This document shows positions 11,023-18,294 of a stretch of DNA of 55,074 nt, piece by piece. The stretch's first letter is position 1, and every line of letters begins with the position of its first letter. The DNA is from a virus (lineage: Duplodnaviria; Heunggongvirae; Uroviricota; Caudoviricetes), in IMG/VR virus record IMGVR_UViG_2880361019_000008. One strand, written 5' to 3'. Made by a program: the position numbers and the translations under genes. The notes below the pieces were generated by a model that worked only from the letters and a program-made list of their open reading frames with translations, was not told the origin of the DNA and searched no databases.

Positions 11023-11210
11023 ATTCATTACGATATGGGAATTCCCATATCGGGTAAAAACGGTTTGCGGTAAAGCGAGAGTTAAGTAGAATTGCTGCGG
11101 GTGCTTGAGGCTGTCTGCCTCGGGCATGACACCGTAAGGCAGACAGAGAAAAGCCCCAGTTAACATTACGCGTCCTGCAAGACGCCTAACATTAATCTGA
11201 GGCCAATTTC

Positions 11211-11423
11211 ATGCTAGACACATGTAGGTTAGCCTCTTACGCGCCGAAAGGCAAGGAGAAGCAGGCTATGAAGCAGCAAAAGGCGATGTTAATCGCCCTG
11301 ATCGTCATCTGTATTACCGTCATAGTGACGGCACTGGTAACGAGGAAAGACCTCTGCGAGGTACGAATCCGAACCGGCCAGACGGAGGTCGTTGTCTTCA
11401 CAGCTTACGAACCTGAGGAGTAA
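11211..11423 (+). CDS. mok: Mok-like overlapping reading frame (in-frame N-terminal extension of hok)
   Basis: 70-aa ORF sharing frame and stop with the hok-like gene, as in chromosomal mok/hok loci. Confidence 0.45.
   Translation: MLDTCRLASYAPKGKEKQAMKQQKAMLIALIVICITVIVTALVTRKDLCEVRIRTGQTEVVVFTAYEPEE
11268..11423 (+). CDS. hok: Hok/Gef-family type I toxin
   Basis: 51-aa MKQQKAMLIALIVICITVIVTALVTRKDLCEVRIRTGQTEVVVFTAYEPEE resembles Hok; SD AGGAG 9 nt upstream. Confidence 0.8.
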   Translation: MKQQKAMLIALIVICITVIVTALVTRKDLCEVRIRTGQTEVVVFTAYEPEE

Positions 11424-13685: not shown

Positions 13686-13715
13686 TTGACCATATACATT
13701 GTCCGGGGCTATATT
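13686..13715 (+). promoter_or_regulatory. Candidate late promoter (PR' analogue): TTGACC-N18-TATATT
   Basis: -35 and -10 hexamers immediately after Q stop. Confidence 0.35.
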
Positions 13716-13777
13716 CCTCGCGCGTCAGCAAAATCTGGCGTCGGGATTGGAACCCCGGATATTCAACCGCGACAGAC

Positions 13778-13801
13778 ACACGCCGCGAGCGTGTTTTTTA
13801 T
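13778..13801 (+). terminator. Intrinsic terminator (tR' analogue)
   Basis: Hairpin ACACGC-CGCGA-GCGTGT followed by TTTTTT. Confidence 0.55.
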
Positions 13802-13963
13802 TGTCGTAAGCACACGCACATCTGAATAATGGTGGGGCGTATGGGGGAGCTGAAAGGCTCGCCGGTTGGTTGATCCGGTAGTTCCAACCCTGTACGTCTC
13901 ACCACCCAATGATTGGAACCTGACGGTGGTGATAGTTAAATCCATCAACCAGAGGGCGTTATC

Positions 13964-14524
13964 ATGACGACTCAAGTTTCTGTCGAAACTCTTTCCCCGA
14001 TCACACACAACCAGCTCCCAGTTGTCACTACAGAGTTACTGGCCAAACTATATGGCTGTAGCGTCGAGTGTATTCATAGAAATCACCACCGTAATAAAGA
14101 GCGATTTGCAGAAGGGAAGCACTACATAATTGCGAAAGGCGCAGACCTCCAAAATTTGAAAATCTCTTTAAGGGATTTTCAAACGATCGCCCCAAATGTC
14201 CGAAAGCTCATACTCTGGACAGAACGCGGAGCAGCCCGTCACGCCAAAATGCTCGAAACCGATCAGGCGTGGGAAGTATTCGAAAAACTGGAAGACTGTT
14301 ATTTCAACCAAAAACAACCACCAGCGGCACAAAACACATCTATCGAAAATGATGGATGCGCATTACTGATCCACTTCGATAAACACGGTCAGGTTGAGTT
14401 CACGGAAAAGGTACCCGCCGATGCGATGGTATGCACTCTGGAACGGTTTAAATTTTATCTGGAGCAACACGGGTGGATCGTTGCCCGTAAAGAGCAACTG
14501 GTGGAGCGGTTGATGCGGTTTTAA
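13964..14524 (+). CDS. ORF6N/KilA-N-type DNA-binding protein (antirepressor-like)
   Basis: 186-aa ORF in the late leader; no stronger identification possible. Confidence 0.6.
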   Translation: MTTQVSVETLSPITHNQLPVVTTELLAKLYGCSVECIHRNHHRNKERFAEGKHYIIAKGADLQNLKISLRDFQTIAPNVRKLILWTERGAARHAKMLETDQAWEVFEKLEDCYFNQKQPPAAQNTSIENDGCALLIHFDKHGQVEFTEKVPADAMVCTLERFKFYLEQHGWIVARKEQLVERLMRF

Positions 14525-14600
14525 AAATTTTTCCGAAAACTTTACGATCGTAAAAAGTCGAATATCCTGTTAAGAGTGGTTACTACGCCACACAGCTTAA

Positions 14601-14624
14601 ACCCGTCGCCAGGCGGGTTTTTTG
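14601..14624 (+). terminator. Intrinsic terminator
   Basis: ACCCG..CGGGT hairpin containing CGCCAGGCGG core, then T6. Confidence 0.45.
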
Positions 14625-15292
14625 TTATGTGCAGGCCACCCCGGGTGGGTGAAATGTTATTTTCTTCCGTAAGGGCATATCGCCAGGATACAGCGATCAT
14701 TGGTGCATCGGTTTTTGGGCTGCTCCGACTCTGCAGGGCAGCCTTTGTTGTTTTTGATTAAACTCCAGAGTTTTTTATTGAAGGGCGTCACGTTGTAGAT
14801 GGTTATGGGGTACTTTTTATTGTCAAGTATGATGCCGGCGTGAACAGGGGTAAAGGAGCTGTCCGGAGGAAGAAACACATCCGACTGATACCAGATTATT
14901 AACTTTATTTCACACCATATGGCTGAAAATGATATTCCGCTCGATGGCTGTATCACCGTGTCAATCACTATCCAGTTCATGTGTTGTGTCTTTCATTGGA
15001 GGAGGAGCGGAGTGTCAGAAGTATAAGTGGTAATCTGTGATCCATGGCACAGAATGGGCCTTTTTTCTGCGTTGTTTGGCGGTTGTTGAAGGAAAGGGAA
15101 AAGGCATCCAGGAGTAAAATGCTCACTCTGAGGGGCTTACCACAGGAGTTGGTAGCTTGCTGGTGGTTTGTTTGATAACAAAATCTTAAATATTCGCCAG
15201 CTTATTGTTAGCATCCTTAATATTGTGTATTTTCAACAGCGCAGGATGACCCTGTGACGAAGCATTCGTTTGTTCCATCATGAAAGTATTTT

Positions 15293-15322
15293 GCCAGCCT
15301 CCCCAAGTGGCTGGCTTTTTTT
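15293..15322 (+). terminator. Intrinsic terminator
   Basis: GCCAGCC-N9-GGCTGGC hairpin followed by T7. Confidence 0.6.
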
Positions 15323-15331
15323 ATGCCATTA

Positions 15332-15357
15332 ACCGGCCACGCCAGGCGGTTTTTTTA
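15332..15357 (+). terminator. Intrinsic terminator (second of tandem pair; same CGCCAGGCGG core as 14601)
   Basis: GC-rich hairpin followed by T7. Confidence 0.45.
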
Positions 15358-15532
15358 TTGGAGATGAATAACCGTATACTGGATGAACAGTCGACAGATT
15401 TTTTAATAATAAAATCCGAATATACGGTGTCTGCTTATTGTTAGCTGGCTTATATTTTTGTATTTTACTGAACCGCAGGATAAAGCCTGTACCAACGATT
15501 GTATGATGAGTAATTTTAAACCTTGTAATTTA

Positions 15533-15565
15533 CCAGTCAGCATCTGGTGACTGGTTTCTTTTTGG
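15533..15565 (+). terminator. Intrinsic terminator
   Basis: CCAGTCA-N8-TGACTGG hairpin followed by T-rich tract. Confidence 0.6.
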
Positions 15566-15620
15566 GGACTGATTACTCGGTCAGTACGGTCAGTCAGGCA
15601 GAATCCGGACGAATATAAAA

Positions 15621-15699
15621 CCGTCACTAGCTCATCGGGAAAGAGCGAACAACGCCAGAGGTTGTTGTATGGTGCGGGGTTCGAGTCCCCGGTGACGGT
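15621..15699 (+). tRNA. tRNA-like element, probably degenerate (perfect acceptor and T arms, good D arm, irregular anticodon arm; no encoded CCA)
   Basis: 7-bp acceptor stem CCGTCAC/GTGACGG, T arm CGGGG-TTCGAGT-CCCCG, D stem GCTC/GAGC; anticodon region does not fit the canonical 5-bp stem plus 7-nt loop. Confidence 0.4.
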
Positions 15700-15729
15700 C
15701 CGGTTGCAATAATAAATTCATTTCAGACG

Positions 15730-15753
15730 GGCTCGCTACGGCGGGCCTTTTTT
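15730..15753 (+). terminator. Intrinsic terminator just downstream of the tRNA-like element
   Basis: 7-bp stem GGCTCGC/GCGGGCC with TACG tetraloop, then T6. Confidence 0.6.
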
Positions 15754-15961
15754 GTATCCGTGCCAGGCCCGCTGCACATCAACCACAGTGCCTTTTTAAA
15801 ATTGATCGCAGTGTGGCGTTATATGAAATCGAAGAAGTAAAACACGATTCGTGTGAAGCGGAAGATGTGCTGGATGTGGCGGTGGCTATTGCGGAAGCAG
15901 ATGGTGAAATTGAGCCGGAAGAGATCGCCGTTGTTCCGGGCCTTCGTCTGGAGAACCTCCT

Positions 15962-16129
15962 GTGAAGGTAAAACTGCGTCTGGCTGTGGTTGCACTACTG
16001 TTGTTTCTGGTGGTGATGGTGGATTTCACCAGCAGAATCATGTCGGTGCTGGCGGATGGGGTGCTGGTCTGCGGCATTGTGGTATTGCTGTGGCCGGTGA
16101 TAAAAAGAAACAGCCTGCATAATGCTTGA
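15962..16129 (+). CDS. Candidate 55-aa hydrophobic membrane peptide
   Basis: GTG start overlapping the stop of an upstream acidic reading frame (15813..15965); predicted double-TM; SD GGAG about 10 nt upstream. Confidence 0.25.
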   Translation: MKVKLRLAVVALLLFLVVMVDFTSRIMSVLADGVLVCGIVVLLWPVIKRNSLHNA

Positions 16130-16330
16130 TTTTTTTATTTGCTGTTTATTAAAAACACCACTGCATGGTGAATCCCCCTGTGCGGTGGGGCAATCAGCAA
16201 GAAGGAATATGGGGTAACCGCGGATTCAGGTGCTGATACTGAATTCACCGGGAGGCACCCGGCACCATGCTTTGCCACAAAAGTGTTATTTCTGTTTTTC
16301 TCAAACTATCATCGTTATCCCTTTATTTTC

Positions 16331-16357
16331 GGCTGCGCATGGCGCGGCCTTTTTTTT
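16331..16357 (+). terminator. Intrinsic terminator upstream of nanS-p
   Basis: 8-bp GC-rich stem with 3-nt loop followed by T8. Confidence 0.55.
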
Positions 16358-16443
16358 ACGACCAGCCACTGGCAGATGGTCATCCTGTGATTTGATTCCG
16401 GTTCCGGCTTTTTAACTCTGTTCCTCTACACGGGAGAAATTCG

Positions 16444-18294
16444 ATGTCGATTAAACATTATGATGTTGTCAGGGCGGCGTCGCCGTCAGACCTTGCGGAA
16501 AAGCTGACACACAAACTGAAAGAGGGCTGGCAGCCATACGGCGGACCGGTTGCCATTACGCCGTACACACTGATGCAGGCGGTGGCTATTGAAGGAGAGC
16601 CACAGGTCGGCCCTTCATCTGAGCCGGATTGGTACTACGTCATCGTACTGGCCGGGCAGTCCAATGCCATGGCTTACGGTGAAGGGCTTCCGCTGCCGGA
16701 TTCATACGATGCTCCGGATCCGTGCATTAAACAGCTGGCGCGCCGCAGTACAGTGACGCCGGGCGGGACTGCCTGCAGATATAACGATATTATTCCGGCC
16801 GACCACTGCCTGCATGATGTGCAGGATATGAGTACGCTGAATCATCCGAAGGCAGACCTGATCAAAGGGCAGTACGGCTGTGTCGGCCAGGGCTTACATA
16901 TTGCCAAAAAACTGCTTCCGTATATCCCGAATAACGCGGGGATCCTGCTGGTACCATGCTGTCGTGGTGGTTCGGCATTCACCCAGGGCGCGGAGGGGAC
17001 ATTCAGCGAGTCCACGGGGGCCAGTCAGGATTCGGCACGCTGGGGGGTGGGCAAGCCGTTATATCAGGATCTGATTTCCCGCACAAAAGCGGCATTGCAG
17101 AAAAATCCCAAAAACGTTCTGCTGGCCGTCTGCTGGATGCAGGGTGAGTTTGACATGAGCGCCGCCACCCACGCACAGCAACCTGCGCTGTTTACAGCCA
17201 TGCTGACACAGTTTCGTGCTGACCTCTCCGTGTTTAACGCGCAGTGCCATGGTGGCAGTGCTGCAGATGTGCCGTGGATTTGTGGTGACACGACGTATTA
17301 CTGGAAAAATACATACGCTACCCAGTACGACACCGTGTACGGCGGGTATAAAAACAGGGAGAGTGAGGGCGTTTATTTTGTGCCCTTCATGACAGACGGT
17401 AACGGCGTCAATACCGCCACTAACGCGCCGGCAGAAGATCCGGATATTCCGGCATCAGGATATTACGGTGCGGCATCGAGAACGAATGGAAACCAGGTAT
17501 CATCAAACCGCCCGACACATTTCAGTTCATGGGCGCGCAGGAGCATTATTCCGGATCGTCTGGCAACCGCTATTCTGAACGCAGCCGGGCGCACCTCCGC
17601 CTTCATCAGTGGTAAGGCACCGGAAATCAAACCCTCGCCCGGCGGCAACACGCCATCGGGTCCGTCTGCAGATACGTCCGTTCGCACAATCTCCCTGCTG
17701 CCGGCAGCCGGAGAGGCTGCTGCGCAGGGCTGGAGCATTAAGGATGGCGGAATTCAGTTGTCAGATGGTGTATTTAAGATCACCAAGCAGAGCAATAAAA
17801 CCTGGTCCCTGACGTATCCGGTGGATGACGCAATTACCCTGCTGACACAGGGCGGCAGACTGACCTGTAAGTTCCGCCTGTCAGGCGCACTGACCAACAA
17901 TCAGTTCGGGCTGGGGATTTATCTGTATACGGATGCTCCCGTTCCTGATGGTGTGGCGATGACGGGTACCGGTAATCCGTTCCTGATGTCGTACTTCACT
18001 CAGACCACTGACGGCAGAGTGAATCTGATGCATCACAGGAAAGCCGGAAACACGAAGCTGGGGGAGTTCGGCGATTACGGTAACGACTGGCAGACGCTGG
18101 AGCTGGTGTTCACCGCCGGCAGTGCCACGGTTACTCCGAAACTGAATGGAGTGGCTGGCCCGGCATTCCAGGTTATAAAAGACAGTCTGACACTGGGACT
18201 GAATGCGCTGACGCTGACGGATGTTACAAAAAATGCAGCGTATGGCGTTGAGATAGAAAGTCTGATGCTGGAGATAAATGCACCGGCAGCATAA
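16444..18294 (+). CDS. nanS-p: Prophage sialate O-acetylesterase NanS-p (N-terminal DUF1737-like region plus SGNH/SASA esterase domain)
   Basis: 616-aa ORF; GQSNA esterase motif; sits between late leader and lysis genes. Confidence 0.85.
   Translation: MSIKHYDVVRAASPSDLAEKLTHKLKEGWQPYGGPVAITPYTLMQAVAIEGEPQVGPSSEPDWYYVIVLAGQSNAMAYGEGLPLPDSYDAPDPCIKQLARRSTVTPGGTACRYNDIIPADHCLHDVQDMSTLNHPKADLIKGQYGCVGQGLHIAKKLLPYIPNNAGILLVPCCRGGSAFTQGAEGTFSESTGASQDSARWGVGKPLYQDLISRTKAALQKNPKNVLLAVCWMQGEFDMSAATHAQQPALFTAMLTQFRADLSVFNAQCHGGSAADVPWICGDTTYYWKNTYATQYDTVYGGYKNRESEGVYFVPFMTDGNGVNTATNAPAEDPDIPASGYYGAASRTNGNQVSSNRPTHFSSWARRSIIPDRLATAILNAAGRTSAFISGKAPEIKPSPGGNTPSGPSADTSVRTISLLPAAGEAAAQGWSIKDGGIQLSDGVFKITKQSNKTWSLTYPVDDAITLLTQGGRLTCKFRLSGALTNNQFGLGIYLYTDAPVPDGVAMTGTGNPFLMSYFTQTTDGRVNLMHHRKAGNTKLGEFGDYGNDWQTLELVFTAGSATVTPKLNGVAGPAFQVIKDSLTLGLNALTLTDVTKNAAYGVEIESLMLEINAPAA

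Follow-up and report, generated by a model that had tools for sequence, protein, structure and literature searches.

The tci module was reportedly described with the genome of bacteriophage P1, in which tciA (70233-70658) is followed by tciB (70658-70822) and then by tciC in the region of the C1-controlled ban operon. The name derives from the homology of TciA to the ter operons, which are associated with tellurite resistance, phage inhibition, and colicin resistance and with which it has the TerB domain in common. Compared to these operons, the phage locus studied here lacks terZ, A, C, D, and E altogether, and its TerB-family protein is paired with a 55-aa peptide of the DUF3927 family (TciB) instead of TerC. 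All three P1 genes are non-essential by CRISPRi, and knock-down of tciB has no effect on plaque formation (PMC10695390). Transcription of P1 tciABC has been observed in P1vir lytic infection (bioRxiv 10.64898/2025.12.28.696737), and the operon is located in a variable region that, in one subgroup of P1-like plasmids, approximately half of the members have lost (PMC9603915). No functional study of TciA, TciB, or DUF3927 was found in the literature searched, and the locus described below is a reminder of how widespread tciAB is, as it occurs in P1, N4-like, lambdoid, and jumbo phages.

In addition to P1, an intact pair is found in Escherichia coli lambdoid prophages (WP_000216636.1 in strain ESDR8), in phage Evi, and in phage JLK-2012 (tciA/tciB). 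The E. coli prophage locus consists of tRNA-Ile, tRNA-Arg, a terminator, a 143-aa TerB-family gene, the overlapping 55-aa DUF3927 gene, the STnc100 small RNA (sRNA) gene, a terminator, and a SASA esterase gene, and its TciA shares 43% identity with that of P1. Phage 434 carries an orphan DUF3927 gene (UMO75333.1) in the same context of Q, STnc100 region, SASA esterase, and holin. No tciA sequence is present in this phage, as the homology begins inside tciB and a gene for an unrelated 247-aa membrane protein is located upstream; phage 434 is a precedent for a tciB without a functional tciA.

The DNA analysed here is a 55,074-nt stretch from a virus of the class Caudoviricetes (IMG/VR record IMGVR_UViG_2880361019_000008; hereafter the window), which contains this known phage module of a TerB-family gene and a DUF3927 gene in degraded form. 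The best explanation of the locus as a whole, which we consider probable, is a decayed tciA-tciB module in a lambdoid prophage of Escherichia albertii, together with a mechanism in which TciB would be the membrane partner of TciA. The TciB proteins of the window and P1 can be aligned over their entire lengths (alignment A2, 48% identity; 51%-58% in local tblastn matches), both proteins contain the motifs D-F-T-S, A/S-D-G-x-L-V, and W-P-x-x-K, and the frame upstream of tciB derives from a TciA homologue. The overlap of the tciA stop with the tciB start and the neighbouring tRNA genes are also features that P1 and the window have in common. In contrast to P1, the window tciA is a 5'-truncated pseudogene, STnc100 is found in place of the absent tciC, and the genes are located in the late region between Q and the lysis genes. 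The intact E. coli prophage locus and the window represent the same locus, with 97% identical DNA from 15917 on and 96% identity between the TciB proteins, but the window tciA lacks 334 bp and a further 18 bp, the DNA of the remnant is approximately 87% identical, and mutations around the tciB start create a predicted hairpin. The phage 434 TciB shares 62% identity with the window protein over the whole alignment and 74% over a 31-residue tblastn match.

An intact tciB behind a truncated tciA

The original prediction placed three plus-strand reading frames at this site, and all of them were found in their predicted positions: an acidic 50-aa frame with a GTG start (15813-15965), a hydrophobic 55-aa frame, also starting with GTG (15962-16129), and a Trp/Arg-rich 89-aa frame (15853-16122) in the third frame of the same DNA. 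It was likewise correct that the stop codon of the acidic frame (TGA, 15963-15965) overlaps the start codon of the hydrophobic one (GTG, 15962-15964) within the tetranucleotide GTGA, and that a GGAG Shine-Dalgarno sequence (15950-15953, plus strand) is located 8 nt 5' of this GTG; the sequence around the junction is CTGGAGAACCTCCTGTGAAGG. The assumption that these two frames are more protein-like than the 89-aa open reading frame (ORF) is supported by database searches, as both match families well beyond chance, whereas no protein family was matched by the 89-aa frame in a Pfam search. The 89-aa frame is an out-of-frame by-product.

Judged by sequence comparison, the hydrophobic frame is a genuine gene for a small, conserved membrane protein. 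It corresponds to an intact tciB (15962-16129, plus strand) encoding a 55-aa protein of the DUF3927 family (Pfam PF13064, phrog_1470). The protein matches DUF3927 with 61 bits (E = 1.1e-16), well above the Pfam gathering cut-off of 25 bits and along almost the entire profile (positions 5-50 of 53), and matches the phrog_1470 family 'TciB-like' over positions 1-54 of 54 (E = 2.9e-29); a search of NCBIfam with TciB gave nothing. An alignment of 10 sequences from five phage types, covering P1, Pollock, Fostie, Evi, 434, and E. coli prophage proteins, is gapless except for short differences in C-terminal length, and the window TciB contains every family-invariant residue (K4, D21, F22, S24, L30, D32, G33, L35, V36, P45, and K48). 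With its stand-alone architecture, its length, and these conserved residues, it resembles the family at large: a DUF3927 profile search of 1.84 billion representative proteins recovered 112 clusters at 50% identity, almost all of them stand-alone proteins of 50-65 aa, and the 215 TciB relatives obtained by a word-indexed search are all annotated as DUF3927. Divergence of the window tciB from its relatives is low, with a dN of 0.017-0.034 and a dS of 0.05-0.07 (Nei-Gojobori).

The layout of TciB comprises a basic N-terminus, two hydrophobic segments in the hydropathy profile (residues 7-20 and 26-47) that are flanked by K/R and separated by an invariant D-F-T-S-R motif, and a basic WP..K(R) C-terminus. 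AlphaFold2 predicts one continuous helix (residues 2-54, pLDDT 89.5, based on a shallow alignment) and not a hairpin. The protein may be either a hairpin or a single-span protein.

The acidic frame, in turn, is a pseudogene fragment, tciA' (15795-15965, plus strand), consisting of 56 codons and a stop codon from the 3' third of a TerB-family tciA that encodes approximately 143 aa when intact. Compared to the TerB of ter operons, its TerB domain is incomplete: the 50-aa frame scores 19.8 bits against Pfam TerB (PF05099), below the cut-off of 24.4, and covers only positions 71-99 of 118, whereas the intact homologue reaches 56.6 bits and spans positions 2-109. The frame also matches phrog_632 'tellurite resistance' (E = 2.3e-11, positions 89-127 of 143) and, in full length, phrog_3920 (E = 3.9e-19), a 48-residue family that corresponds exactly to the TciA C-terminus.

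The anatomy of the decay was derived from a gap-tolerant pairwise alignment with the intact locus of E. coli ESDR8 (L002, tciA at 2258-2689). In this alignment, window positions 15730-15794 correspond to L002 2102-2166 (terminator and leader) and positions 15795-15916 to L002 2501-2622, which places the junction of an approximately 334-bp deletion at 15794..15795 on the plus strand. Compared to intact loci, this deletion removed approximately 91 bp of leader, the ribosome-binding site, the ATG, and approximately 81 tciA codons; its junction lies inside a T-run (GCCTTT/TTAAAA), and its position is ambiguous by 1-3 nt. An additional in-frame deletion of 18 bp at 15916..15917 (plus strand; L002 2623-2640 absent) is located between GGAAGAG direct repeats and costs TciA the six residues ERKVLE, as seen in the nucleotide alignment and in protein alignment A3; this loss is a slippage deletion. 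The acidic frame had been suspected to be a gene remnant without a convincing start, and this is what the alignment revealed, since the 5' end of tciA was lost with the larger deletion and no Shine-Dalgarno sequence precedes the GTG at 15813, the sole in-frame start. What is left is not an ORF of the approximately 141-149 aa of an intact TciA, lacks a ribosome-binding site and start of its own, and was not called by the gene callers in any of the six assemblies compared. The locus illustrates in detail the decay, through short-homology deletions, of cargo carried between Q and the lysis genes in lambdoid prophages. A promoter-like match (9/12, TGCACA-18-TAAAAT, 15773-15802) spans the deletion junction, but was given no weight, as the region contains three such sites compared to 1.8 +/- 1.5 in shuffled sequence.

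Beyond the deletions, 10 residues of the remnant are seen in none of the 11 intact protein alleles; they are located at otherwise invariant or nearly invariant positions and include radical substitutions such as G>D, R>S, R>Y, R>C, G>V, and L>P. In total, it differs from the intact alleles by 10-12 of the 56 aligned residues, whereas no two of these alleles differ by more than five. The synonymous divergence of the remnant (dS 0.34-0.47) contrasts with that of tciB (dS 0.05-0.07), indicating a recombination (mosaic) boundary near the gene junction. As much of the divergence of the remnant is older than its decay, its dN/dS is only 0.2-0.35 (Nei-Gojobori), and this ratio is less telling than the number of changes specific to this lineage at positions that are otherwise invariant or nearly so.

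Prophage setting and host

The pair occupies a cargo slot between the antiterminator gene Q and the lysis genes, and the description as a 'decayed moron' in the original prediction agrees well with a decayed moron-type cargo module in this region of a lambdoid prophage. Where intact relatives carry tRNA-Ile and tRNA-Arg, the window has a degenerate tRNA-like element (15621..15701, plus strand), which ARAGORN identified as tRNA-Leu(CAG) and which has a cloverleaf-like fold (z = -2.9), but which the Rfam tRNA model did not recognize even at E<=1. It is followed by a terminator-like hairpin with a T-run (15729..15756, plus strand; hairpin 15729-15748 with an 8-bp stem containing six GC pairs, TTTTTGTATC) that is conserved in the intact loci, with its E. 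coli ESDR8 counterpart at L002 2101-2120.

Only 8 nt 3' of the tciB stop codon, the STnc100 sRNA gene begins (16137..16303, plus strand; Rfam RF02076, 98.5 bits compared to a gathering score of 47). A second terminator-like hairpin with a T-run (16331..16357, plus strand; hairpin 16331-16349) closes the tciB-STnc100 segment and is followed by the SASA esterase gene (16444-18294). The placement of the pair between two terminators holds for its upstream side only, because the next plus-strand hairpin downstream is found not directly behind tciB but after STnc100. STnc100 occupies the same position after tciB in phage Evi, a tRNA is located between the two in an Enterobacter locus (L093), and in many E. 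coli genomes STnc100 occurs without any tci genes. STnc100 is a separate, widely distributed prophage sRNA module. A 31-aa ORF (16122-16217) was considered as a counterpart of TciC and rejected, as it is a stretch of STnc100; reading the translations, we saw no evident mutual similarity between this ORF, P1 TciC (35 aa), and the small ORFs that follow tciB in Fostie and 434.

An identical 55-aa protein occurs in NCBI on 19 contigs, one of them a 4.92-Mb chromosome (CP034212.1), under the name 'DUF3927 family protein [Escherichia albertii]'. All six E. albertii assemblies compared are identical to the window over the tci locus (15621-16529), and over 14562-16529 five of the six are identical, with a single substitution at 14957, approximately 1 kb upstream, in the remaining one. 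These exact matches indicate that the window is an E. albertii lambdoid prophage in which tciB is already annotated. The deletion allele was absent from 5,426 complete E. coli genomes and was found only in E. albertii assemblies. As the six assemblies contain no tci-locus diversity, the intactness of tciB may reflect either selection or simply a recent origin of the allele. In itself, the locus matters little, the peptide gene being annotated already in public E. albertii genomes and the acidic frame being an ordinary pseudogene fragment; for annotation, the tciA pseudogene deserves to be marked upstream of tciB. The mildly new points are limited to the precise structure of the decayed gene and to the finding that phage TerB genes are recurrently coupled to unrelated small membrane protein families.

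The tciA-tciB pair across phages and prophages

The tciA-tciB pair is a conserved module across unrelated phages. The two genes adjoin each other in P1, the N4-like phage Pollock, the lambdoid phages Fostie and Evi, and the Erwinia jumbo phage ChrisDB; their stop and start codons overlap or abut in the first four, and a gap of 3 nt separates them in ChrisDB. The possibility raised with the original prediction that neither frame would be conserved in related prophages did not hold, as conservation is extensive. Among the 80 IMG/VR loci closest to the window TciB, all carry tciA directly upstream, and it is almost full length in 79, the exception being an E. coli prophage (L086) in which tciA starts from residue ~53. 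In loci from species-level bacterial genomes, a full tciA precedes tciB in 14 of 18 cases, a truncated one in a single case (the Enterobacter locus L093), and the remaining three have no tciA or a broken tciB. When 80 loci were selected through TciA instead, tciB was full length in 77 and ended at a premature stop in three, and several loci contained a tciA interrupted by a stop codon.

Intact tciB genes next to a truncated tciA occur in three independent lineages (the window, L086, and Enterobacter L093), and no tciA at all accompanies tciB in phage 434 and two further loci (L097 and L100). The truncation points of tciA vary by lineage (residues ~53, ~72-98, and ~81), and in these independent cases a reading frame of 46-93 aa, beginning with GTG or ATG, remains immediately 5' of the intact tciB. 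Conversely, the E. albertii type strain (L103) contains only a fragment of tciB. Both tci genes decay sporadically in prophages, and the window contains one more decayed copy.

TciA-like genes were found in approximately 130 phage records, among them those of Vibrio, Pseudomonas, and Erwinia phages, whereas TciB was found in approximately 30, indicating that TciA does not strictly need a DUF3927 partner. In the Pseudomonas phages Lana and AF, the TerB gene overlaps the start of a gene for a different small single-pass membrane protein, with conserved motifs visibly common to the Lana and AF proteins. Among the six longest DUF3927 matches of the profile search that were checked (87-176 aa), none was a genuine TerB-DUF3927 fusion; long matches include chimeric or frameshifted calls involving a truncated His-phosphatase, a truncated ABC ATPase, or a frameshifted tciA. 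The lack of a natural fusion, the wider distribution of TciA-like genes, and the single AlphaFold2 helix of TciB speak against a model in which TciB anchors TciA, and the occurrence of tciB without tciA in phage 434, L097, and L100 would fit an autonomous function.

Expression and possible roles of TciB

In intact modules, a cytoplasmic TciA and TciB would be produced together by translational coupling via the overlapping GTGA, and TciB may serve as inner-membrane partner or anchor of the soluble TciA. This idea is based on the two hydrophobic segments of TciB, on the repeated occurrence of small membrane proteins from more than one family as partners of TerB genes in phages, and on the weak similarity of TciA to membrane-associated TerB-like families, namely DUF533 (E = 3.8e-5) and DjlA (E = 1e-6), which are membrane-tethered. 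As the module is also found in strictly virulent N4-like and jumbo phages, it may act for the phage in lytic growth, in line with the transcription of P1 tciABC in P1vir infection.

In the window, the GTGA overlap is kept, but the upstream gene is only a remnant of 56 codons, and transcription of tciB would occur only within the Q-antiterminated late transcript or by read-through. RNA folding places the Shine-Dalgarno sequence and the GUG of this tciB allele in a predicted hairpin of ~12 pairs, which arises from substitutions unique to the window allele, and the predicted probability of the start codon being unpaired is 0.08, compared to 0.30-0.80 in 10 intact alleles. With coupling lost and the translation start sequestered in this way, TciB would probably be produced at a low level and, without its partner, may be a leftover with no active role as a toxin or conversion factor.

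The main rival to this interpretation is that TciB is an autonomous inner-membrane protein, used for example for envelope modification or the exclusion of phages or colicins, that still functions here, with the loss of tciA being tolerated. We consider this unlikely, although several observations are in line with it: intact tciB genes next to truncated tciA genes in the window, L086, and L093, the persistence of tciB without tciA in phage 434, L097, and L100, the GGAG of its own, and the low dN and full set of invariant residues of the window tciB. Against it, the tci region of this allele contains no diversity, leaving no time for selection to have become visible, and the start codon is predicted to be sequestered in this very allele. 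Pairing is the overwhelming rule across unrelated phage families (80/80 of the closest loci, 14/18 genome loci, and 77/80 loci selected through tciA), and tciB decays alone elsewhere, as seen from the three premature stops and the fragment in L103. In a broader version of this thought, phage TerB proteins would generally be two-gene units with a coupled membrane partner, DUF3927 in enterobacterial phages and an unrelated single-pass protein in Pseudomonas phages, and the repeated survival of tciB would reflect an autonomous host-membrane activity, such as exclusion or envelope modulation, that is still active in the lysogen; this more far-reaching reading is quite unlikely.

The small size of TciB, its strong hydrophobicity with charged ends, and the location of tciB immediately before the lysis cassette of lambdoid prophages could also indicate a type I-like membrane toxin or a lysis-timing peptide, with the pair forming a toxin-antidote or killer module. 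We regard this as very improbable, and the original suggestion of a membrane toxin-like peptide was not borne out, as the only significant Pfam match of the peptide is DUF3927, with no toxin or holin family and no PADLOC model among its matches (TciA gave only a sub-threshold PADLOC match, E = 0.0024). A comparison with type I toxins of the Hok, Ldr, Ibs, TisB, and Zor type identified neither a toxin-family sequence nor an antisense RNA antitoxin: opposite 15813-16129, consensus scans gave neither an Rfam family, at a threshold as loose as E<=1, nor a promoter-like site on the minus strand, although a novel RNA could escape such scans. In P1, N4-like, and jumbo phages, tciB is located away from the lysis genes, a class II holin is encoded by the prophage itself downstream of tciB, and the P1 knock-down left plaque formation unaffected (PMC10695390). 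The stable inheritance of an intact tciB here, although the only candidate antidote gene is destroyed, and its intactness after partner loss in several independent lineages argue against a toxin that is neutralised by the product of the upstream gene.

It is even harder to credit a functional mini-protein made of the last ~50 residues of TciA, which would contain one acidic TerB half-motif (EADGEIEPEE) and still cooperate with TciB. The exact correspondence of the 48-residue phrog_3920 to this part of the protein would be compatible with such a role, as would the frames of 46-93 aa, beginning with GTG or ATG, that independent truncations have left before intact tciB genes and the still open frame of the window remnant with its native overlapping stop. 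However, truncation points that differ among lineages are what random deletions would give, and the GTG at 15813 lacks a Shine-Dalgarno sequence in a frame that gene callers skip in 6/6 assemblies. With six residues deleted and 10 lineage-specific substitutions that are often radical (G>D, R>Y, R>C, and L>P), the window remnant is to be treated as a pseudogene fragment. Returning to the main rival, if TciB does act alone, the natural tciA-null allele of E. albertii would be a convenient test case.

A probable degenerate tRNA and the tRNA genes around tciAB

An 81-nt tRNA-like element is found on the plus strand at 15621-15701, which ARAGORN reports as tRNA-Leu(CAG). The element has a cloverleaf-like fold (z = -2.9), and the Rfam tRNA model gave no match to it, even at E<=1. 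Since tRNA-Ile and tRNA-Arg hold this position in the intact relatives, the element probably represents a phage tRNA that has degenerated.

tRNA genes adjoin the module formed by tciA (TerB family) and tciB (DUF3927 small membrane protein) in unrelated phages. They lie upstream of tciAB in lambdoid prophages (Ile and Arg tRNAs; intact E. coli ESDR8 prophage, L002 1836-2853), in the Erwinia jumbo phage ChrisDB (tRNA-Trp and tRNA-Cys; L191 186-1409), and in P1 (trnA and trnT; L003 1131-2791), where trnI additionally follows 4 nt 3' of tciC. In the Enterobacter locus (L093 2855-3442), a tRNA is located downstream of the module.

STnc100 downstream of tciB

The small RNA STnc100 is encoded on the plus strand at 16137-16303 (98.5 bits), beginning 8 nt downstream of the tciB stop codon and ending before the terminator at 16331-16349. 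The lambdoid phage Evi, with intact tciA-tciB, has STnc100 after tciB in the same position as the window, and in the Enterobacter locus a tRNA separates tciB from the downstream STnc100. Of the 2,663 E. coli genomes matching the query, a large proportion contain STnc100 but no tci genes. According to a 2026 preprint, STnc100 is related to the PasD sRNAs, and TerB is listed there among the conserved neighbours of PasA and PasC.

Decay and variation of the module

At the start of tciB, base changes that occur in this allele alone have produced an almost perfect inverted repeat (15940-15970, plus strand; CCTTCGTCTGGAG-AAC-CTCCTGTGAAGG), which buries both the Shine-Dalgarno sequence and the GTG start codon and is absent from the intact alleles. 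The 61-nt segment containing the repeat has a z of -0.74; the repeat may have arisen by chance, or it may reflect drift after the loss of coupling. Another, independent stage of decay within E. albertii is found in the type strain NBRC 107761, in which tciA is missing and tciB is reduced to a fragment covering profile positions 8-43 (L103 2968-3087).

The Pseudomonas phages Lana (L194 801-1453) and AF (L192 759-1453) encode a TerB-like protein followed, with overlapping stop and start codons, by a single-pass membrane protein of 71-73 aa, which lacks annotation in AF. These small proteins share the motif C-x-WYGYQT-[DE]-R...VGCMV and are unrelated to DUF3927, whose place they seem to take as non-homologous small membrane partners.

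Other elements in the window

A 107-aa minus-strand ORF (14657-14980) lies between the antirepressor-like gene and the tRNA-like element, in a region otherwise poor in genes. Our own Pfam scan of this ORF yielded no match at E<=0.001, and a precomputed table assigns Pfam PmrD (PF11183) to the identical 107-aa protein from E. albertii assemblies. The ORF is a candidate for a PmrD-like connector protein carried by a prophage. Upstream of the ORF6N antirepressor-like gene (13964-14524), the plus strand carries an a1/b1 target, isrK and C4 antisense RNA (13709-13909). Further prophage RNA elements are the sok antitoxin RNA (11099-11273, plus strand) and DicF (4534-4585, minus strand).
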